NCBI GenBank assembly: GCA_963612735.1
Contig: CAVDWX010000010.1
Location: 10,387-74,386 of the forward strand
DNA: 64,000 nucleotides
DNA from: Gemmiger formicilis
GTDB taxonomy: Bacteria; Bacillota_I; Bacilli_A; RFN20; CAG-826
Direction: 5' to 3'
In this document: positions 40,638 through 53,312 of the stretch, piece after piece
Layout: each line of letters opens with the position of its first letter
How positions within the stretch are numbered: the stretch's first letter is position 1
The notes under the pieces: model-generated
The model's database searches: none
What the model saw: only the letters and a program-made list of their open reading frames with translations
Told to the model about the DNA's origin: nothing
Position numbers and translations under genes: made by a program

Positions 40638-41948
40638 TTATTTTATATATCTTAAAAGGAAATCACATACACCGATAATCGTGAACCCTTTTTCATCTCT
40701 TGTTTCTTTAATAGGTTTATTGATAACTATTATTTTTTGTATTTGATCATTTAGTGCTAAATACGGTTTTAATTCCCTATTTTTTGTGGCCTCATTTGAA
40801 TAATCATCGCATACTTGAATGTAATACATCCTATTTCCTTTGACAGCTAAGAAATTAACTTCTAGTGTTTTTCGAATTGTCTTACCATTAGTGTCTTTTT
40901 CAAAAAAGTCGAAAGTACCTACATTAATTTTATAATCATTATATATAAGCTCGTTATAAATAACATTTTTGAGTAATTTGTCTGTATCAGGATATACGAA
41001 ATTCAATCGAGCGTTTCTAAGGCCTGTATCGACATAAAAATATTTCTTAGTTGATTTAATAATATTTTTGCCCTTTAAATCATAGCGGAATGCTTCAGAT
41101 ATAATAAAGGATTCAATAAATGAATTTATGTAAGAATTTACTGTATCAGAATCTATTTTATTATTTGTTTTTGCTTTATATAGATTTGTTATTTTTTGAG
41201 AGTTAATTAAATCTCCAACACAAGTTGCAAGCATTGTGCATATCTCATCTAATGCTTCATGCTTTTTTATCTTGTTACGATCGATGATATCTTTTAAATC
41301 TGTTGTTTCAAATAGTCCTTTTAAATAATTTTCTTTATCGATTCCTTCTTTTAATACTGCGAGCGGCATCCCACCGTATAAAAGGAAGTCATTTATTAAT
41401 AAATTTTCATCTTTGTATTTATATTTATGAATTTCTTCAAATGATAATGGCATAACGCGAATATTAGTGGCTTTGTCTCTAAATTGAGTCACAATATCAC
41501 TAGATAACATTTTTGAATTACTTCCTGTTATGTATAAATCAATATTTTCAATTGATGACAAATCTAAAACAACATCAACAAATGTAATCACAGTTTGATC
41601 TTTAGAAGATGCGATAACATGCTTGCCTTCACTCAATGATGGATTATGTAGTGTATAAACTTCTTGAATCTCATCTAAAATAACATAATAGAATTTATTT
41701 TTATCACTGGTTAGTTTCAATATATGTTCATATAAATAAATTGGATCTCTATATTTTGCATTTGATATTTTTGTTAAATCGAGAATGATTATGTTTTGAT
41801 TAGGTACGCCATTATCGATTAAATAATTTTTATAAATCGTATTTAACAAATAAGATTTTCCACATCTTCTTATTCCTGTTATAACTTTTGGAAAACCGTT
41901 TTGTTTTGATTTAATCAATAAATTTAAATATTTATCTCTAGATATCAT
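40638..41948 (-). CDS. AAA+ ATPase of the AAA_14 + DUF4143 family (orphan, function unknown).
   Basis: Walker A GIRRCGKSYLL, Walker B YYVILDEIQ, and a C-terminal DUF4143-like region. Confidence 0.8.
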   Translation of the reverse strand: MISRDKYLNLLIKSKQNGFPKVITGIRRCGKSYLLNTIYKNYLIDNGVPNQNIIILDLTKISNAKYRDPIYLYEHILKLTSDKNKFYYVILDEIQEVYTLHNPSLSEGKHVIASSKDQTVITFVDVVLDLSSIENIDLYITGSNSKMLSSDIVTQFRDKATNIRVMPLSFEEIHKYKYKDENLLINDFLLYGGMPLAVLKEGIDKENYLKGLFETTDLKDIIDRNKIKKHEALDEICTMLATCVGDLINSQKITNLYKAKTNNKIDSDTVNSYINSFIESFIISEAFRYDLKGKNIIKSTKKYFYVDTGLRNARLNFVYPDTDKLLKNVIYNELIYNDYKINVGTFDFFEKDTNGKTIRKTLEVNFLAVKGNRMYYIQVCDDYSNEATKNRELKPYLALNDQIQKIIVINKPIKETRDEKGFTIIGVCDFLLRYIK

Positions 41949-43332: not shown

Positions 43333-44727
43333 ATGAATACTAAAGATATGACAAAAGGCAATTCGTTTATTATCATCTTGTTATTCGCAATACCAATGGT
43401 ATTATCGGTTACCTTACAACAATTATATAACCTTGCTGATAATTTTATTGCTGGACATTTTATCAGCTCAGTAGATAGCTTTAATGCAGTTGGAATTGTT
43501 TATCCTATCACTGTTGTCTTTTTAGATATAGCTGTTGGATTTGGAGTTGGATGTGGAGTTATAAGCGCTAGATATTTTGGTGGGAAAGACTTCATTTCTG
43601 TTAAAAAGTGCGCAAAAGTTGGCTTAATTGGAACGATTTGCTTAGGACTTATCGTTACTGCGATTGGTTTTGGAATCATTTATCCTCTATTAAAAGGAAT
43701 GATTGATAGCAAGAATGGGCAAGGATGTTTTAATGAAGCTTTGTATTATATGCTCATCTATATTGGCGGCGTTATATTTCTTTTTATCTATAATTACGCG
43801 ATGTATATGTTTCAATCGTTTGGCAATTCTAAAACGCCCTTATATTTTTTAATCTTTTCAACCTTGCTTAATGTGGGATTAGATTTATTATTTGTGGTCC
43901 CTATTAAATTCAATAGTGCTGGTTTAGCCCTTGGCACCGTCATTTCGGAAGCTATCGCTGCGATATTATCAGTTATGGTTTTATTTAAAAACATTAATAA
44001 GATGCATGAGGTCAAAATTAAAGGTTTTGATAAACCTATTTTTAAAGAGATTGTTTCTGTTGCAATTCCTAGCATTTTACAAGGCTTATTTATCTCCATT
44101 GGCGGTGTATTAATTACAACAATTCTTACTAATGTTGGTGGAAATGATGTGGCAGGTGGATATTCTGCAGCCTATAAAATTTGTTATATTGCTATCAATA
44201 TTTTTACTGTCCTATGCAATGCTTTATGCAATTTCGTTTCGCAAAACGTTGGAGCGCAAAAATATGAAAGAATTATGCATGGATATTTTTCAACATTGAT
44301 AATTTGCTTTGTTTTCTGCGCTATTTCTATGGCGGTTATTCTTCCTTTAAAAGAATTCTGGGTGAAGTTATTTTTATCAGAAGGCGATAACGCTGATGTT
44401 AAAACCATTATACATTCTGGATCATTATTTATTACGTGTGTTGTTCCCTTTTTCTTCTTAATGGTTATTAAGATTCCACTTGATGGTGTCTTAAAAGGGT
44501 CAATGGATATGTTCGGTTTTACTCTTGGCACATCAGTTGACTTAGCAGTTCGTGTCTTAGCTGCTTTGATACTTGGTAATCTTTATGGCTATGAAGGCGT
44601 TTTCTTTGCGTGGCCGTTAGGATGGGCTGTTGGAGCAGTAATTTCAATTGTTATGTTCTTTGTTGGAAGATGGAAAAAGAAATGTCACTATCCAGTGGGA
44701 ATGAAACTTATTGTGAAAAATAGTTAA
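43333..44727 (+). CDS. MATE-family multidrug/oligosaccharide efflux transporter.
   Basis: 12-TM protein with N-terminus FAIPMVLSVTLQQLYNLADNFIAGHF, typical of MATE (NorM/DinF) proteins; 464 aa. Confidence 0.88.
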   Translation: MNTKDMTKGNSFIIILLFAIPMVLSVTLQQLYNLADNFIAGHFISSVDSFNAVGIVYPITVVFLDIAVGFGVGCGVISARYFGGKDFISVKKCAKVGLIGTICLGLIVTAIGFGIIYPLLKGMIDSKNGQGCFNEALYYMLIYIGGVIFLFIYNYAMYMFQSFGNSKTPLYFLIFSTLLNVGLDLLFVVPIKFNSAGLALGTVISEAIAAILSVMVLFKNINKMHEVKIKGFDKPIFKEIVSVAIPSILQGLFISIGGVLITTILTNVGGNDVAGGYSAAYKICYIAINIFTVLCNALCNFVSQNVGAQKYERIMHGYFSTLIICFVFCAISMAVILPLKEFWVKLFLSEGDNADVKTIIHSGSLFITCVVPFFFLMVIKIPLDGVLKGSMDMFGFTLGTSVDLAVRVLAALILGNLYGYEGVFFAWPLGWAVGAVISIVMFFVGRWKKKCHYPVGMKLIVKNS

Positions 44728-44773
44728 AACTAAATCGACCGACTTTTTTAGTGCCTATATTTTACTTTTTTCC

Positions 44774-44810
44774 TTGGTGCATCTTTGGTGCATTTTTTGG
44801 TGCAAATTAT
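44774..44810 (+). repeat. 37-bp element holding three copies of TTGGTGCA (copy A), 42 nt upstream of the Schlafen-like gene.
   Basis: TTGGTGCAtctTTGGTGCAtttttTGGTGCAaattat; matches 46278..46314 at 36 of 37 positions. Confidence 0.85.
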
Positions 44811-44851
44811 CAAAAATATGATACAATTGTATATAGAAATAGGAGTTAAAA

Positions 44852-46276
44852 ATGTCATTGCCCACAAATATTAATAAGATTTTAAACCCTGACATTGTTG
44901 AAAGTGTTCGTGTTGAATTAAAAGAAGGTTGGAACCCTCAATCTATTCTTCATACAATATGTGCTTTCGCTAATGATATCGATAATTTTTATGGTGGATA
45001 TATTATTCTAGGTATTAAAGATAATAAAGAAGTTATTGGTTTTGATAGATCCAAATTTGACGAACTTCAAAAAGATGTTATTAGATACTGTAAAAAATGT
45101 CTTGAGCCATCATATGAACCTGTCATTGATATCGTTAAATATGTTGATAAAGATGTCGTTGTTTTGTGGTGTCCATCTGGTGAACAAAAACCTTATAAAT
45201 GTTATGAAGATGTCTATACAAGTAAGAGTGAAACGCGCTTTCAAACATATATTAGAAAAGGTTCATTAACTATTATTACTTCTCATGCAGAAGAAAAAGA
45301 ACTTTATAATATTGGCAACTTCATCCCTTTTGATGATCGCGTTAATTATAAATACGATCTAAGTGTGATTGATAAGGATATTGTAAGAGAGTATTTAAGA
45401 AAAGTTGATTCCAATCTATTACTTAATTTTAATAGCCACAGTTTAGAACAAATTTTGTTTGATTTAAGAGTTTTATCTGGACCAATCGAACATTTATGTC
45501 CTAAAAATATAGCTCTATTGATGTTTACAGATAACCCATCTTTATATATCCCGTATTCTTATATTGAAGTTACGATTCTAAAAGATTTATCAGGAGAAGA
45601 ATTAATTGAAAAAACTTTCGATTCTGCCTTATTCAAACAATATGAAAACTGTATGCAATATTTAAAGGATAATGTCATTGAAAAGAAAATCGTTAAAGTT
45701 GAAGGAGACTATAAAGCAGCTACAATTTATAATTATTCATACGAAGTTCTTGAAGAAGTAGTTGCTAACGCTATTCTACATAAGTCTTATCAAATTGCTG
45801 AACCGGTTTCAATTAGAGTTGAACCAGATAAAATTGAAGTGACTAGTGTACCAGGATTTGATCGAACAATTAGCAATACAGCAATTAAAGAATTAAAACC
45901 TAAATCAAAAAGGTATCAATCTCGGCGCATTGCAGAGTTTTTAAAAGAATTAGGAATTGTTGAGGCTAAAAACACGGGCTATCCTCGCATTGTTAAAAAG
46001 AGTTTAGAAAATCATTCTCCTCTTCCAATTATTGAAATGAATGAACAACGTGATTACGTTACTGTAATTATTCCGATTAACAAAAATTTTGTGAATAATA
46101 ACCTTTCGTTAGAAGATAAAATCATTGATTTGCTACAAGAAAAACCTCTTACCAAAACTGAACTTGCTTTAGCGTTAGGATATCCACGAGTCGTTAATTC
46201 TATTAGTTATAGGCTTAATAAGTTAATTAAAGAAAACAAAGTCTCTATCAAGAGTAAAAAATATTATTTGATTTGA
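44852..46276 (+). CDS. Schlafen-like ATP-binding protein / putative transcriptional regulator (AlbA_2 + HATPase_c_4 + C-terminal winged HTH; COG2865 family).
   Basis: N-terminal AlbA_2 signature (VELKEGWNPQSILHTICAFANDIDNFYGGYIILGIKDN), HATPase_c_4-like (NAILHKSY..NTGYPRIVK), C-terminal wHTH (LTKTELALALGYPRVVNSISYRLNKL). Confidence 0.85.
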   Translation: MSLPTNINKILNPDIVESVRVELKEGWNPQSILHTICAFANDIDNFYGGYIILGIKDNKEVIGFDRSKFDELQKDVIRYCKKCLEPSYEPVIDIVKYVDKDVVVLWCPSGEQKPYKCYEDVYTSKSETRFQTYIRKGSLTIITSHAEEKELYNIGNFIPFDDRVNYKYDLSVIDKDIVREYLRKVDSNLLLNFNSHSLEQILFDLRVLSGPIEHLCPKNIALLMFTDNPSLYIPYSYIEVTILKDLSGEELIEKTFDSALFKQYENCMQYLKDNVIEKKIVKVEGDYKAATIYNYSYEVLEEVVANAILHKSYQIAEPVSIRVEPDKIEVTSVPGFDRTISNTAIKELKPKSKRYQSRRIAEFLKELGIVEAKNTGYPRIVKKSLENHSPLPIIEMNEQRDYVTVIIPINKNFVNNNLSLEDKIIDLLQEKPLTKTELALALGYPRVVNSISYRLNKLIKENKVSIKSKKYYLI

Positions 46277-46277
46277 T

Positions 46278-46314
46278 TGGTGCAACTTTGGTGCATTTTT
46301 TGGTGCAAATTACG
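46278..46314 (+). repeat. Second copy (copy B) of the 37-bp triple TTGGTGCA element, starting 2 nt after the Schlafen-like gene stop.
   Basis: TTGGTGCAactTTGGTGCAtttttTGGTGCAaattac. Confidence 0.85.
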
Positions 46315-46372
46315 GCGTAATACATAATATCGACATCAAGTATTTCATGTTATTATCTATATTTTATTATTG

Positions 46373-46408
46373 TGCACCAAAGCATAGATTATTGGTGCAT
46401 TTTTATTT
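46373..46408 (+). terminator. Inverted TGCACCAA-N11-TTGGTGCA repeat followed by a T-run: either a terminator-like hairpin or a palindromic operator built from the same 8-mer.
   Basis: 8-bp perfect arms, 11-nt spacer, then TTTTTATTT; the motif is identical to the direct-repeat arrays. Confidence 0.55.
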
Positions 46409-46469
46409 CCTATGAGGTTAAATAAATGTATAGATATTTTCTTCCTTTTAGTGGAAAATTATATTAGTC

Positions 46470-49400
46470 ATGAAATTAAGCATTAAAAATACGCTTTATC
46501 TTTCCATCATACAAAATAAATGGATAGATATTTCTTATCTTAATAAAAATAATGAATCCACCTCTTATTTCATTGGGATAAAAGATATCAATATTAAAAA
46601 GGAAATCATTTATTGCGATATTTTCAATCCATTTAAACAATTATTAAAAGATAATAAAGAAACATTCATTTATATCAATTCCATTCAAAGCGCTGAAATT
46701 ATTGAAGAAAGCTATTATGAAGTTCCTTCCTCTATCCTTAGGAAAATAAAAAAAGATGATGAATTGAAAGAATATTTACAAGTCATCAATTTTGATAATA
46801 ATATTTTGAAATATTTATCCGATTGTTATCGTTATGATAATGATCCGTTTTTAAAAGATATCGTCATGATTGACGGGATTGATTTGCATGTTCTTTCTTC
46901 CACTAATAAATACAAATTAAATGATAAACAATTTGAAACTATTTTAGATAAAGTTTTCAAAAAGAAAAAGAAAGATGCGGAAGCTATTGTTCGTTTCCAA
47001 ACCTTGGCTATAAATGTCTTTTCTATCGACATCAATGATAAGCAATATGTTGTCGCCTATAAAATGCTTAATCTCAATTTTAAGAACAAAACTCTAAAAA
47101 TGAGCAATAATTCTATAATTAATAAATCCTTTCTTATCAGTGAAGAAAAGAAAGTCACATTAGGAATGTATTTAGATATTAATCCTGAAACATTTATCTC
47201 TACTTTTGACGCTCATAAGGATGAATACATTGAAGGAATTAAAGCTAATTTCCATAATCATGAATTAGTCAATACTCGACCGACTATCTTTTTGTTGGCG
47301 AGAACTTTTTATAAAGATGTCGATATCACTTTTGAATCGATCCATCAAATGGACAAAGATAATAAATTAACTTTCCCTATAAAAGCCTTTTTTGGAAGGA
47401 CAAAACCCACTAAAGAGAGAACTAAAGAAGTTAATGTTGTCATCTTTAATCAAAAGAAAATAAACATTGATCAGATGAGAGTTATTTATAATTCTATGAT
47501 TAATCATGTCACCTATGTTAAAGGTCCACCTGGTACAGGTAAAACCGAGACCATATTTAATGTTTTATTATCAGCATACGCAAATGATATGAAAGTTTTA
47601 GTTTGTTCTAATAATAATCATCCCGTTAGCGATATTTATTTAAAGATGCAAAATTCGTTAACGGTGCAATTTGATAATCAAGATAAGCCGACACCAATTC
47701 TTTTTCCTCTTATTAGATTAGGCAATAACACTGAAATGGTAGAGACAATCGCAAAACTCAAATCTATTGTTATCTATATTCAAGAACATGCTAAGGTCAA
47801 TATTTCAGAAAACGCCACTGCTGGAAGTAAAAAGCGCTTTATGGAAACGTTTAATAAATTAAAGGAAACACTTAAAGAATATGAAGATAGCATTGATCTA
47901 TCAGAACGACTCAATATTTTAGAAAAGATAAAAAGCATGAGCGAGATTTCCGCTATCAATAACAAATTAGATGAACAAATTGCGACATATCGTAGTTTAC
48001 TAGAACGTTCTAAAATTGTCTCAGATGATGAAGTGATGTCTCTTGCTATATCAGCCTCAAATGATCGCAACTTCCAATATTATTTATATTATTCATCGTT
48101 AGCTAAATATAAAAAATTGTTAACTGAACCTTATAAAGACTTAATTAATATTCTTAACCTATCCGATGTCGATGATGCTGTTATGGAATTCAATCGATAT
48201 TTACGAAATGACGACAATTTAAAAAAGTTTTTACATGTTTTCCCGCTTGTTTTATGCACAAATTTGTCTTGTGGTAAATTAGGTGGAGCTAAACCACAAT
48301 TTGATTTAGTAATCATGGATGAAGCGGGACAATGCAATATTGCTACTTCTTTAATTCCTATTATAAGAGGCAATAATTTATTACTTGTTGGTGATACTAA
48401 TCAACTTCAACCTGTCACTGTCTTAGAAGATAACGTTAATGAATCTTTAAAAAAAAGATATGAGATAGGTGATGAATATGATTACATTCATAATTCCATT
48501 CTTTCGACAATGATGAGAAAGGATAATAATTCAAAATGTATCTTGCTTAGATATCATTATCGATGTGGTAAAAAGATTGCTAATTTTGTCAATAAACGCT
48601 TTTATAATGATCAGCTTAAATTATTAAATCAAAATGTTGGCGAATTGATTTACTATAATGTGAAAAATACTACTACTAAAAATAATCGAAACGCCTATAA
48701 AGAAGAAGCTATTCAAATTGCTCGATTAATAAAAAATAAAAAATATAAAGAAGTTGGAATTATCACTCCATTTGTTAATCAGGCCGCTCTTATCAATCAA
48801 TATTTATCAGAATTGGATATCAATGATGTTAAAGCCGGAACTATTCATACGCTTCAAGGTTCTGAAAAACAGATCATTATTATGTCCAGTGCCATATCAC
48901 TTAAGACTGGTTTTAAAACGATGGATTGGATCAAAAATAACCATGAATTAATTAATGTTGCTGTCACTAGAGCTAAAAGTAAATTTATCTTTGTGGGTGA
49001 TAAACAAGCTATTGATTTATTGAGCAAAGACGAAGATAACGATATCAAAATTTTATCTGACTACATCTATAGTAATGGAACGGTGATTGTTCCGCCTAGC
49101 GACGCTATTATTTCATACGATTTTTCAAATGATTCGAAAAATGAAAAAGATTTTTTTGAAACAGTTAGACCATACTTTAATCGAAGAGGCTCTAAATTTA
49201 AGATTGAAAGAAATGTTCCAATCATGAATGCGATTAAAAATATTAATCCCGAAGATTATCATCTAATTGGTAAGAAGGAATTTGATTTGATTGTTCAAGT
49301 AAGCAGCGGCTTATTTAATAAACATTTTCACACTATTGTGGTTTTTGAAATTGATGGTGGAGAGCATATTGGTAGCAATAAACAAGCTAAATTAGATCGA

Positions 49401-49571
49401 CAAAAAGAAAAAGTTTGTAAAAAATATGGGATTAAATTAATCCGTATTCCTAACAGTGCAGTCAAAGATTATGAAACCATTATTTCTTTATTTGAAATGG
49501 TGGTCAAAGGTTTAAAAGATATGAAAGAAGCGTTTTCTCAACTTTCTTTATTTGATAACGAAACTGTTTAA
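46470..49571 (+). CDS. Upf1-like SF1B helicase (AAA_11/AAA_12) fused to a C-terminal Vsr/DUF559-like PD-(D/E)xK nuclease domain, with an uncharacterised ~340-aa N-terminal domain; architecture is Hhe-like.
   Basis: Motif I VKGPPGTGKTETI, Ia VLVCSNNNHPVSD, II LVIMDEAGQ, III LLVGDTNQLQPV, V GTIHTLQGSEKQIIIMSS, VI NVAVTRAK; C-terminus FDLIVQ...VVFEIDGGEH...LIRIP. Confidence 0.88.
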   Translation: MKLSIKNTLYLSIIQNKWIDISYLNKNNESTSYFIGIKDINIKKEIIYCDIFNPFKQLLKDNKETFIYINSIQSAEIIEESYYEVPSSILRKIKKDDELKEYLQVINFDNNILKYLSDCYRYDNDPFLKDIVMIDGIDLHVLSSTNKYKLNDKQFETILDKVFKKKKKDAEAIVRFQTLAINVFSIDINDKQYVVAYKMLNLNFKNKTLKMSNNSIINKSFLISEEKKVTLGMYLDINPETFISTFDAHKDEYIEGIKANFHNHELVNTRPTIFLLARTFYKDVDITFESIHQMDKDNKLTFPIKAFFGRTKPTKERTKEVNVVIFNQKKINIDQMRVIYNSMINHVTYVKGPPGTGKTETIFNVLLSAYANDMKVLVCSNNNHPVSDIYLKMQNSLTVQFDNQDKPTPILFPLIRLGNNTEMVETIAKLKSIVIYIQEHAKVNISENATAGSKKRFMETFNKLKETLKEYEDSIDLSERLNILEKIKSMSEISAINNKLDEQIATYRSLLERSKIVSDDEVMSLAISASNDRNFQYYLYYSSLAKYKKLLTEPYKDLINILNLSDVDDAVMEFNRYLRNDDNLKKFLHVFPLVLCTNLSCGKLGGAKPQFDLVIMDEAGQCNIATSLIPIIRGNNLLLVGDTNQLQPVTVLEDNVNESLKKRYEIGDEYDYIHNSILSTMMRKDNNSKCILLRYHYRCGKKIANFVNKRFYNDQLKLLNQNVGELIYYNVKNTTTKNNRNAYKEEAIQIARLIKNKKYKEVGIITPFVNQAALINQYLSELDINDVKAGTIHTLQGSEKQIIIMSSAISLKTGFKTMDWIKNNHELINVAVTRAKSKFIFVGDKQAIDLLSKDEDNDIKILSDYIYSNGTVIVPPSDAIISYDFSNDSKNEKDFFETVRPYFNRRGSKFKIERNVPIMNAIKNINPEDYHLIGKKEFDLIVQVSSGLFNKHFHTIVVFEIDGGEHIGSNKQAKLDRQKEKVCKKYGIKLIRIPNSAVKDYETIISLFEMVVKGLKDMKEAFSQLSLFDNETV

Positions 49572-49607
49572 ATTAAAATTTATATAAAGTTTTAGGAGGA
49601 CAAAATC

Positions 49608-51080
49608 ATGATGACAATATATAAGGTAGCTGAATTAATAACTAAAAATCCGAATGATATAATTTTTTATATTATCGATAAGGAAGAAGTTATTACTTTT
49701 CCACACAAAGATTATAAAAAGTTATTGAAAAATTATCATGACGAATCTATTTCGCAAACTACTTTTGAAACGCTAGCTCGATTAAAGCTTGAAAACGACA
49801 ATAATTTTTATATATTGCCTTACTTTACTAAGAAAGATTTAACTAAAATTGTTAATGAATTTGTTTCTCTACACCAAAACGACTACTTCCAAAATTTCAA
49901 GTCTATAACAATCACCCAAATTAAAAAGAACATGTTGAATGATTCTTCTTTTAAAGATTGCTGGATTAATTTCTTTTGCGATTTAATTGGTATTCATTTT
50001 TTGAAATTTGCTGAAGCTTTTAAAATTAAAGAAGATGAGGCAAGCCCAGAACTTTATAAAAAAGTTGTTGATTTGCTAAAGGAATATGAAGAAGGCCATT
50101 ATGAAAAGATTTTCGCTGATAATCATCGCTTTAATTTATTTTTTGATAAGACCTTTGGCGCAGATGCTTTATGTACTATTATGGGACATGGAGGAATCAC
50201 TAATGGCATCAGTTTTTACATTCACGAAAAAGCTGAAGCTATGCATATTTTGCTTACTAATGACAACAACGACTTAGATGATTATTATGTTCCGACTTTA
50301 ACTTTTTTAGGAAAACAAATTACTTTTTATTTTAATGATGAAAGTTGTGCAACAAATAATGACAAATTTGGAAGTCTAAATCCATTTGGCGATGATGATT
50401 CAATTACATCGTTTGTTACTTATGTAGGTACTTCTTACCATTGCTATTTAACTGCCTCTATGGCACATGGTGTGATTAGATATTTAACTAAGCTTCTTCT
50501 TGCAATGAAAGATTTTGTTAAAGAAGCTAAAAAATTAGATTTAGAAGATACTACTTATGATTTTATTATGGTGGATGAACAAACTCATGTTACACCAATC
50601 GATACAAATTCTGATGATTTTGTAGATGATATTACTATTGACCTACCCACTGCTAAAATTTTTGATAAGAAAAAGAAAATTAAATTAAAGACTAATAAAA
50701 AATGGGACTTTGCTGTTCGATTTGTTCCTGGCGCTAATGTGGCTGAAGAGACAGGACGAATTTGTGATTGGGTTTTTTATTATTGTTTCTTTGATCATGA
50801 TAGTGGCGATATCGTTCGTTTTGAAATGGTACCACCTGAATTTATGGATACAATAAGCACTTTAATTGACAATTTGACTGAGACATTACACTTAATTGGT
50901 TTAGCGGATACTGTTTATTGCTCAAGCTTTTTCGACGCCGCTATTTTATCTCTTGCATTAGGAAAAGATAATGATATCTGTAAAAAATTTAATTTTGTTT
51001 TTACTCGAAAGTTAAAAGACCAAATCAACACATTATCGGAATCGCTAATGGAAGAATTTGATAAAGAAGCTGATGCTTAA
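49608..51080 (+). CDS. Uncharacterised acidic 490-aa protein, co-transcribed partner of the helicase-nuclease.
   Basis: Strong RBS AGGAGGA 7 nt upstream; 37-nt gap after the helicase gene; no recognisable domain; rich in D/E/F/Y. Confidence 0.78.
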   Translation: MMTIYKVAELITKNPNDIIFYIIDKEEVITFPHKDYKKLLKNYHDESISQTTFETLARLKLENDNNFYILPYFTKKDLTKIVNEFVSLHQNDYFQNFKSITITQIKKNMLNDSSFKDCWINFFCDLIGIHFLKFAEAFKIKEDEASPELYKKVVDLLKEYEEGHYEKIFADNHRFNLFFDKTFGADALCTIMGHGGITNGISFYIHEKAEAMHILLTNDNNDLDDYYVPTLTFLGKQITFYFNDESCATNNDKFGSLNPFGDDDSITSFVTYVGTSYHCYLTASMAHGVIRYLTKLLLAMKDFVKEAKKLDLEDTTYDFIMVDEQTHVTPIDTNSDDFVDDITIDLPTAKIFDKKKKIKLKTNKKWDFAVRFVPGANVAEETGRICDWVFYYCFFDHDSGDIVRFEMVPPEFMDTISTLIDNLTETLHLIGLADTVYCSSFFDAAILSLALGKDNDICKKFNFVFTRKLKDQINTLSESLMEEFDKEADA

Positions 51081-51793: not shown

Positions 51794-51810
51794 TCTTATT
51801 GATTATTATA

Positions 51811-51862
51811 ATTTACTCATTTACCTATTTGATTTACTCATTTACTCATTTAATTTACTCAT
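51811..51862 (+). repeat. Tandem array of the octamer ATTTACTC (about 5 copies, some degenerate) just upstream of the second Schlafen-like gene.
   Basis: atttactc-atttacct-atttg-atttactc-atttactc-attta-atttactc-atttg. Confidence 0.8.
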
Positions 51863-51893
51863 TTGATATATTTTTAGTATAGCAATCGAAGAA

Positions 51894-53312
51894 ATGGATA
51901 TTCTTAATTTAAAAGATGAACATTATGTAGAATTGAAAAGCACTGATGGTGGATTGCCGTTAAGCTTATATTAAACAATTTCTTCTTTTGCTAATTCGGA
52001 TGGTGGCACCATCTATTTAGGTGTTGTCGAAGGAAACCCTAATCAATTGCGAGGTTTGAACAAAAATACTTGTGATAAATATAAGTCTGATTTGCTTAAC
52101 TCCATTCATAACAAAAACAAGATTTCATTTCCGGCTATTTCTGATGACAACTTTATGCTCATTTCACTAGCTAATGAGAAATATGTTTTGGCTATTGAAG
52201 TTAAAGAAGCTCATTATTTGCAAAAACCTGTCTATATAAATGGAAATGTGCTTTTAGCCTATGGTAGAGATAATGAAGGTGATTATTTGCTTAGAGAAGA
52301 TCAAATTAAATCTTTATTTGAAGATAGTGGTCATGGACTTTTTGATTCTCTTCCAAATAATATGCATTACGGTTTTGAAGAAGTCGATTTAGACACTCTG
52401 CACATTTATCGAAGCATGCTGAATGAAAATGATCCGACAAATTTATATAAAAAATATAATGATGTAGATTTTTTAAAAAAGACTGCTTTTTTACTTCCAA
52501 ATAGTAATGGCAATTACGTTCTTTCGAATGCTGCAGTACTTCTTTTTACCTCATCTTCATTAATTAAAACTATTTGTCCTTACTATTATCTAGATTATCA
52601 ACAAAAAGAAAATATTAGTGAAAAGTGGAATAATAGAATATCTAGTGATGACACAAATTTGTCAGGAAATCTCTTTGATTTTTATTTAAAAACATTTAAT
52701 GAAATATGCAAACAACTCCCATCTAGTTATGTTAGTGATGGAAGCAAAAACATTGGTCCTCGTTTAATGCAAGACGCCATTAAAGAAACTTTGGCTAATG
52801 CTTTAATCAATCACGCTTTTATGTTGAATGGGTCGTTAACTGTATTCTGGTATTTAAACGGAATAGAAATACAAAATAATGGTAAGATGCTTGTGCCTTT
52901 AGATGTTGCCTTTCGAGGTGGAACATCTCTCCCACGGAATTCTATGATTTTAACTGCGTTTAGAAGACTTGGCATTGCTGATCGAGCTGGCACTGGTATT
53001 CCAAAAATCATTGAAGCTTTAAAAGATAATCATTTTCCTGATTTAGTTATTAAAGAATTTTCTTATCCAATTGATAAAACTACTTTAGTAATATCTTTTA
53101 TTTCACTTAATAAGACCAAAGGAAATGGTAATAAAGATATAGTGCTTTCATTACTAGCTAAAAATAATGATGGGCTCAGCATATTAGACTTTATGAATTT
53201 AACTAATTGGTCTAGATCAACTGTTTCTAAACTCCTCAATAATTTATTACAAAAAGGGCAAATTACCACAAACGGAAAAGAAAAGAAGGCACGTCGCTTC
53301 CTTTTAAAATAA
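51894..53312 (+). pseudogene. Second Schlafen-like (AlbA_2 + HATPase_c_4 + wHTH) gene, interrupted by an in-frame TAA at 51972..51974 (codon 27).
   Basis: ATG 51894 encodes MDILNLKDEHYVELKSTDGGLPLSLY, then TAA, then the same frame continues TISSFANSDGGTIYLGVVEG... (AlbA_2 core). The stop sits where the family usually has Lys, so AAA to TAA is a likely cause. Confidence 0.7.

Follow-up and report, generated by a model that had tools for sequence, protein, structure and literature searches.

The subject of this study is a gene and the short repeats that bracket it in a 64-kb stretch of Gemmiger formicilis DNA (contig CAVDWX010000010.1), hereafter called the window. The gene, on the plus strand at 44852..46276, encodes a Schlafen-like protein of 474 residues, and the repeats are copies of the octamer TTGGTGCA, arranged as two triple direct arrays, A1 and A2, and one inverted pair. 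An exact search of both strands of the window returned eight copies of TTGGTGCA, all of them inside 44774-46399, compared with a mean of 1.06 by chance; none of 100 dinucleotide-preserving shuffles reached eight, and allowing one mismatch added no further clustered copies. This agrees with an earlier note on the same DNA, which had counted eight octamers within 1.6 kb and none elsewhere in the window.

Array A1 (44774..44804, plus strand) consists of three direct repeats that begin at 44774, 44785 and 44797, with a spacing of 11 and 12 bp. The same spacing is found in array A2 (46277..46307, plus strand), whose copies begin at 46277, 46288 and 46300. The first base of A2 directly follows the TGA stop codon of the Schlafen-like gene (46274-46276); the earlier placement of this array at 46278, two nucleotides past the stop, was therefore off by one. 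The two 37-mers that contain the triple repeats match at 36 of 37 positions, the same near-identity that had been noted before, and a repeat search lengthens the match to 41 nt at 93% identity (44769-44809 against 46272-46312). Distances from the 37-mers to the start codons that follow them also hold, namely, 41 nt from A1 to the ATG at 44852 and 156 nt from A2 to the ATG at 46470, where a helicase gene begins. The inverted pair, TGCACCAA-N11-TTGGTGCA followed by a T-run (46373..46408, no strand assigned), had likewise been described and was located by exact search and folding. It sits 65 nt beyond A2, with one half at 46373-46380 (minus strand) and the other at 46392-46399 (plus strand), and is followed by TTTTTATTT.

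The bracketed gene encodes three domains, identified by Pfam searches, an AlphaFold2 (AF2) model and Foldseek comparisons. The N-terminal part matches SLFN_AlbA_2 (PF04326, E = 4e−17, residues 17-138), and CAFAND, the form that the (S/C)AFAN motif of this domain takes here, is invariant across the homologue alignment. A GHKL ATPase domain follows (HATPase_c_4, PF13749, E = 1.3e−7, residues 318-406); ATP binding is predicted only, and residue N306 and the NTG(Y)P motif are conserved in the alignment. The Pfam search of the 474-residue protein gave no helix-turn-helix (HTH) match, and an exact look-up of its sequence returned no record. In the AF2 model (mean confidence, pLDDT, of 86.7), residues ~418-474 form a helix-helix-helix-strand-strand arrangement, a winged helix, with helices at 420-430, 435-441 and 449-460 and strands at 464-467 and 470-473. 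Foldseek matched the model over its whole length to an uncharacterised full-length protein (3lmm), its nuclease domain to SAMD9 and SLFN5, its ATPase domain to the catalytic (ATPase) domains of histidine kinases, and its winged helix, locally, to the Z-alpha domain of ZBP1 and to CRP. The combination of SLFN_AlbA_2 with a GHKL ATPase has been named the "Schlatpase" supradomain; it occurs in ~60,000 proteins, most of them small, and more than 90% of their tails contain an HTH (bioRxiv 10.64898/2026.05.29.728809). With all three domains found, the 474-residue protein belongs to the Schlatpase-HTH group, whose members with a C-terminal HTH have been described bioinformatically only (bioRxiv 10.64898/2026.05.29.728809).

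Read from the sequence, the predicted promoter of the gene has an extended −10 element, TGaTACAAT (44819..44827, plus strand), followed by a Shine-Dalgarno motif AGGAG (44841-44845, plus strand). A1 ends 17 nt before the −10, and its third repeat lies on the −35 position. The predicted promoter of the gene thus adjoins A1, as expected of an autoregulatory operator, and the layout is shared with six orthologues. At A2 there is a weak promoter-like layout, TTGGTG-17 nt-CATAAT (46323-46328), whose CATAAT is not kept in the closest relative, locus L184 (the loci compared here are designated by L numbers).

Arrays at orthologous loci

Close orthologues of the protein are 89% (L184/L185), 74% (L266), 70% (L186), 67% (L187, L188, L016, L017) and 55% (L267) identical to it. 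At every one of these levels of identity the gene is preceded by a triple TGGTGC[AG] array; the loci in which A1 was seen to be kept include L184, L186, L187, L266 and L267. Outside the upstream array the intergenic sequence differs among these orthologues, as do the genes on either side. Thus, the gene is followed by a helicase gene in the window and in L184, by a TOTE primase-helicase in L187, by a truncated TOTE and then a Fic gene in L188, and by convergent genes in L266 and L267; the genes on its 5′ side vary likewise. A TGn extended −10 is present in all six orthologous upstream regions compared, with the TGn and the −10 hexamer at the same place. The distance from the end of the array to the −10 is 17-18 nt in five orthologue lineages and 6 nt, one helical turn less, in L267. 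Over the whole range of 55-89% protein identity the three-copy structure and the TGGTGC cores are retained and the spacers drift.

A second triple array begins at the first base after the stop codon in all orthologues except L266. Wherever a downstream array is present in the TGGTGCA clade (L184, L186, L187, L017, L267, L021, L004 and the window), it abuts the stop codon exactly. Two of these loci, L021 and L004, have a gene that is mostly deleted or decayed, yet both arrays persist. In these (L021 4100-4370 and L004 7540-7910) A1 is followed by the 3′ end of the gene only, encoding the winged-helix part, and then by A2; the remnant in L021 is an intact open reading frame (ORF) of 70 codons with its ATG just before A1.

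The two arrays of one genome also resemble each other in detail. Lineage-specific variants are common to A1 and A2, such as TTGGTGCG-TCT in L184 and TGGTGCG-TGC in L267, and in L186 the arrays match at 43 of 44 positions. Array identity is 0.61-0.98 within a genome versus about 0.63 between genomes. The inverted pair in L184 is half kept, with the right half-site TGGTGCA intact, the left one changed to CACACCAA and the hairpin lost. We also considered a GCACCA found upstream of A1 in L187-type loci as the 3′ remnant of an earlier gene copy, a case that is ambiguous given a homology of only ~20-25 nt.

Clade-specific arrays across the family

To look beyond the close orthologues, a metagenome scan was run with the homologue alignment, which yielded 80 loci, mostly 35-44% identical to the window protein. 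Arrays were counted in the 150 nt upstream of the gene at 65 distinct loci, namely, distant homologues (35-44%) and three close orthologues. At least three copies of one 6-mer at 10-13 bp spacing were found in 26 of the 65 upstream regions versus 4 of 382 control ORFs from the same loci, and two of these four positive controls are themselves arrays of the A2 type. When 7-mers in either orientation were counted, at least three copies occurred in 50 of 65 regions (77%) versus 19 of 311 controls (6%), and at least four copies in 49% of homologues versus 1% of controls. The cognate 8-mer is nearly absent elsewhere in these loci, which span 5-13 kb.

The repeat unit differs from clade to clade, taking forms such as AAAGTGGTCTA, AGTCGTGAGTT, TCGTAAG, TAATGGGGTAAGT, AAAGGGGTATCAT, AAGTCGTCGAT and ACTCGAC/GTCGAGT palindromes, and it tracks the predicted recognition helix of the winged-helix domain: SKTF[RK] is paired with GTCGT-type units, TKVTSTLSKALKEL with TAATGGGGTAAGT, KGI[ST]AKL with the ACTCGAC/GTCGAGT palindromes and RVVNS[IV]S with TGGTGCA. 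This covariation is qualitative; it was assessed by visual comparison of the clades, and shared ancestry confounds it. In the majority layout the array extends from just after a TATAAT-like −10 to the ribosome-binding site. Inverted copies stand upstream of the −10 in L194, L205, L232, L235 and L242, which argues for recognition of double-stranded DNA. A clade at 48% identity (L269/L270) has four GCCCATTTTT-type units beside a TTGTTA-17-TATAAT promoter. A downstream bracketing copy recurs in other clades, ~125 nt long in L252 and shorter in L253 and L263. In L252 (360-2200) the operator region duplicated on either side of the gene is built of CCTCAT/ATGAGG units, and in L253 (300-2010), a high-G+C locus with unreliable gene calls downstream, of TCTCAT/ATGAGA units.

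Scans of genome and viral contigs for triple arrays gave 183 loci, most of which belong to unrelated taxa and are coding repeats of period 12 or perfect minisatellites. Of these, only the loci from Bacilli/Erysipelotrichaceae metagenome-assembled genomes (MAGs) and L106 adjoin a homologue. These loci have no bearing on whether a universal TTGGTGCA-binding factor exists. L106 (1-1700), from a Lachnospiraceae MAG, holds a distant Schlatpase gene whose winged helix is unrelated, and 3 nt past its stop codon there are four copies of ACTTGCACCAA, which is the same octamer, inverted. A compound 11-bp minisatellite, (TTGGTGCAAAG)n(TTAGAGTGAAG)n, is common to four loci (L019, L066, L097 and L157), three of them in MAGs of Succinimonas, Eubacteriales and Acutalibacteraceae and one in a viral contig, and may represent a shared mobile element or an iteron region.

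Interpretation of the arrays

Comparison of these sequences makes it fairly likely that the 474-residue Schlatpase-HTH protein, the presumed binder of the TTGGTGCA repeats, has its cognate DNA sites in the TGGTGC[AG] repeats around its own gene and that these form its autoregulatory operator arrays. We favour this reading because the arrays travel with the gene, because the arrays found family-wide track the recognition helix, and because homologues of the neighbouring helicase that occur alone have none: at 60-68% identity, in other contexts and without the Schlafen-like gene, they carry zero TGGTGC arrays. Qualitatively, sites that are conserved with the gene and change with the DNA-binding domain are what an autoregulatory operator predicts. 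The protomers would bind the three direct repeats head-to-tail through their winged helices, one per helical turn, and would probably be held together by the GHKL ATPase domain. Since A1 lies upstream of the extended −10 and in phase with it, its occupancy would set the transcription of the gene itself. As to the sign of this regulation, autorepression appears the better candidate by analogy with the majority layout, in which the array runs from the −10 to the ribosome-binding site. Extra operators of the same protein might be provided by A2 and the inverted pair, acting on transcription that enters or starts before the helicase gene, by roadblock or promoter occlusion, and/or reinforcing repression by looping to A1. 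The inverted pair is probably a palindromic auxiliary operator and only possibly a weak terminator as well. The helicase gene is the candidate regulated neighbour.

Several observations weigh against the operator reading or parts of it, in addition to the confounding of the helix-repeat covariation by descent. About one quarter of the homologues have no obvious array, homologues in operons on two plasmids have none at all, and many distant homologues have perfect tandem arrays, as slippage-prone minisatellites would also give. Three direct repeats fit a simple dimer or tetramer poorly. The place of A1 in the TGGTGCA clade, upstream of the −10, is an activator position too, which leaves the sign of regulation uncertain. 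Between the stop codon and the start of the helicase gene the promoter scan scored no canonical sigma-70 promoter, and for this reason co-transcription of the helicase gene, subject to a regulated block, is plausible. Finally, A2 is missing from L266, which has A1 only, and is kept in L267 though no co-directional gene follows there, so that a role of A2 in control of the downstream gene cannot be general. The proposal of the earlier note, that the arrays are operators, plausibly of the Schlafen-like protein's own winged helix, coupling its promoter to that of the helicase, thus fares well in its first half, with arrays conserved alongside the gene and differing by clade as the recognition helix does; binding and coupling are both putative, and in L267 no co-directional gene follows A2.

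The same note had offered two other readings, an insertion scar and a terminator, which have to be weighed here. If the 37-41-bp direct repeats were structural leftovers of duplication, unequal crossing-over or cassette movement, with no regulatory role, one could readily account for A1 and A2 being more alike within a genome than orthologous arrays are, for the lineage-specific variants they have in common, for the 3′ gene fragments lying between two arrays in L021 and L004, for the ~125-nt duplicate on either side of the gene in L252, and for the array-gene-array unit standing amid different neighbours in different genomes. Against this, the likeness is limited to the repeats and a few bases, and three copies and the TGGTGC cores are kept as the spacers drift. 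Moreover, L266 has A1 alone, the unit in the window has no adjoining recombinase gene, the helicase homologues (a small genome sample) included no empty site that retained one array, and the clade-specific arrays upstream of genes throughout the family cannot be scars. Taken as a whole, leftovers without function are quite unlikely. The variants shared by A1 and A2 and the 3′ gene remnants between arrays do suggest, at the level of sequence, that duplication or recombination between arrays gave rise to the bracket and that such recombination homogenises it, a history near to that of a cassette scar yet distinct from it. That the inverted pair and its T-run form an intrinsic terminator or attenuator, acting at the RNA level to stop the transcript of the Schlafen-like gene or to control how far it reads on into the helicase gene, is unlikely as well. 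The element does fold (−11.2 kcal/mol) into a stem of 9 bp closed by a loop of 11 nt, with UUUUUAUUU behind it, and it is placed between the two genes. However, its folding energy corresponds to z = −1.9 only, with 11 of 200 shuffles folding equally well; it was not called by the terminator scan, its loop being above the limit of that scan; and the equivalent in L184, at 89% protein identity, reaches −5.4 kcal/mol (z = −0.02) though the right half-site is intact, so that the hairpin is not conserved. Both arms are exactly the operator octamer, for which recognition by a protein is the simpler explanation.

Two further possibilities keep the repeats as binding sites, of another protein or in another molecule. 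One-turn direct repeats by the −35 are typical of OmpR/PhoB-, SARP- and WalR-type activators, and our view of this genome is restricted to 64 kb, so a regulator encoded elsewhere, for example an OmpR/PhoB-type response regulator with the Schlafen-like gene merely as its target, has to be considered; with a motif that moves with the gene across genomes and contexts, that pairs in each clade's distinct form with a distinct recognition helix, and that is essentially private to the locus, we regard it as very unlikely. Still less probable, though possible for clades whose arrays are transcribed, is a post-transcriptional self-control in which the repeats function within the untranslated regions of the mRNA, 5′ and 3′, and are recognised there by the Schlafen/AlbA_2 domain as an RNA-binding or nuclease module. 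Schlafen domains are RNases, RefSeq calls the homologues "RNA-binding domain-containing protein", most distant homologues have the array downstream of the −10 and ahead of the start codon, hence in transcribed sequence, and in L267 A2 is flanked by the stop codon and a hairpin. In the TGGTGCA clade, by contrast, A1 is upstream of the −10; the inverted copies upstream of the −10 and the ACTCGAC/GTCGAGT palindromes suit double-stranded DNA; it is the winged helix whose sequence changes along with the motif; and no Rfam match was obtained, Rfam 15 giving no near-threshold match in 44600-46600 and none over the arrays of 14 related loci. Informal comparison with a sigma-54 promoter, a Rex box, a DnaA box and the consensus sequences of known Firmicute operators gave no fit. 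Replication iterons or a partition centromere were also rejected, as the neighbours are MatE, helicase and housekeeping genes (SecA, PrfB, UvrB) and homologues are rare on plasmids (3 of 72,556 records) and phages (2 of 50,697 records).

The autoregulatory operator reading can be carried further, to a model that we put forward tentatively and consider rather unlikely in its full form. Each small Schlatpase-HTH protein, of which bacteria have tens of thousands, would be tethered to a private repeat "address" at its own gene, and on this array an oligomer or filament would assemble head-to-tail in an ATP-dependent manner. Nucleated in this way, the assembly would shut off the gene and keep the Schlafen RNase inactive; a trigger such as infection or nucleic-acid damage would then bring about release, freeing the nuclease and de-repressing adjacent defence genes. 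The array at the stop codon in the TGGTGCA clade might, in such a scheme, close a loop round the gene or stall RNA polymerase at its 3′ end.

Related systems and neighbouring genes

Winged-helix proteins of the OmpR/PhoB, SARP and WalR types bind short one-turn direct repeats by or over the −35. The window protein resembles them in combining a winged helix with one-turn direct repeats at the −35 (compare PMC5930380). Unlike them, it has no receiver or BTA domain, the Schlafen nuclease-like and GHKL domains taking the place of the sensor part; its sites are private to its own locus instead of serving a regulon, and the family's arrays are mostly downstream of the −10. BrxR/CapW proteins (wHTH-WYL, that is, a winged HTH with a WYL domain) are regulators in defence islands that bind inverted repeats as dimers. 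Here too, a presumed DNA-binding protein with a putative operator in its own promoter heads variable defence genes (SF1 helicase-DUF2726; the TOTE primase-helicase in L187), but the architecture is unrelated, and the Schlatpase-HTH genes have direct-repeat arrays, with a second one 3′ of the coding sequence. Iterons and the ParR-parC system share the 3 to >9 direct repeats with ~11-bp periodicity, which in those systems are bound cooperatively by an adjacently encoded protein, as may hold here, whereas the Schlatpase-HTH locus is chromosomal, among housekeeping genes, and has no replication or partition genes. The arrangement of protein and repeats seen in the window belongs to none of the OmpR/PhoB, SARP, iteron or BrxR/CapW families.

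Among proteins related in sequence or structure, SLFN-pAgo has both Pfam domains in common with the 474-residue protein and differs in that an Argonaute replaces the winged helix and DNA is sensed through a guide RNA. The SLFN+GHKL module of SLFN-pAgo undergoes ATP-dependent oligomerisation (tetramerisation) (bioRxiv 10.64898/2026.05.29.728809). The whole-length structural match, 3lmm, is DIP2311, a structural-genomics protein. Photorhabdus TrlG has the same Pfam architecture as the window protein but is the last gene of an operon that has a separate regulator. A literature search returned no description of cognate repeat arrays or autoregulation for the Schlatpase-HTH family, though its coverage was incomplete and a prior description is possible. 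Winged-helix autoregulators with repeat operators are common, and the result for the window is unsurprising in kind. What appears new is a rule at the level of the family: a very large, functionally uncharacterised family, related both to eukaryotic Schlafens and to the SLFN-pAgo effector module, seems to be paired with self-specific arrays that can be read from the genome. This offers protein-DNA pairs for binding, structural and specificity-swap experiments, reporters for the releasing signal, and a means of predicting which neighbouring defence genes the Schlatpase-HTH proteins control.

A second Schlatpase-HTH paralogue is encoded in the window at 51894..53312 (plus strand), recognised by HATPase_c_4 and an IclR/MarR-type HTH in Pfam and by an N-terminal SFAN motif. 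The ORF listed at 52047-53312 is part of this full-length paralogue, which starts at 51894 and is interrupted by one in-frame TAA at 51972 (codon 27); the gene could be a pseudogene, the codon could be a sequencing error, or it could be read through. Sequence search revealed what appears to be the cognate array of this paralogue at 51806..51864 (plus strand), consisting of TATAAT (51806-51811) and, directly behind it, four copies of TTACTCATTT within 51813-51864 (at 51813, 51834, 51842 and 51855), that is, four of the five exact copies in the window.

The gene downstream of A2 (46470..49571, plus strand) encodes a superfamily 1 (SF1) helicase (AAA_11/AAA_12) with a C-terminal DUF2726, and according to Pfam and PADLOC it resembles MkoC/MkoA. 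On its 3′ side, both in the window (49608..51080, plus strand) and in L184, lies a gene for a 490-residue protein with a weak DUF7309 match. Many homologues of this SF1 helicase-DUF2726 region (window 46470-51080; L272-L275), 60-68% identical, occur in Erysipelotrichaceae/Bacilli MAGs in other defence-like contexts; in L274 the helicase homologue stands directly 3′ of a gene for a 1607-residue DEAD/YjiV_N/MZB protein. A 4.1-kb Logan contig (L271, run SRR13434609) is identical to window positions 45528-49640. Upstream of the Schlafen-like gene the window has a MatE transporter gene, and the wider setting is chromosomal, with SecA, PrfB, UvrB and SecG and with synteny to a metagenomic relative. 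An AAA_14/DUF4143 ATPase gene is intact in the window (40638-41948, minus strand) and split into two ORFs in the 89% relative (L184 5902-7243), and L266 has a gene resembling it close to the Schlafen-like gene.

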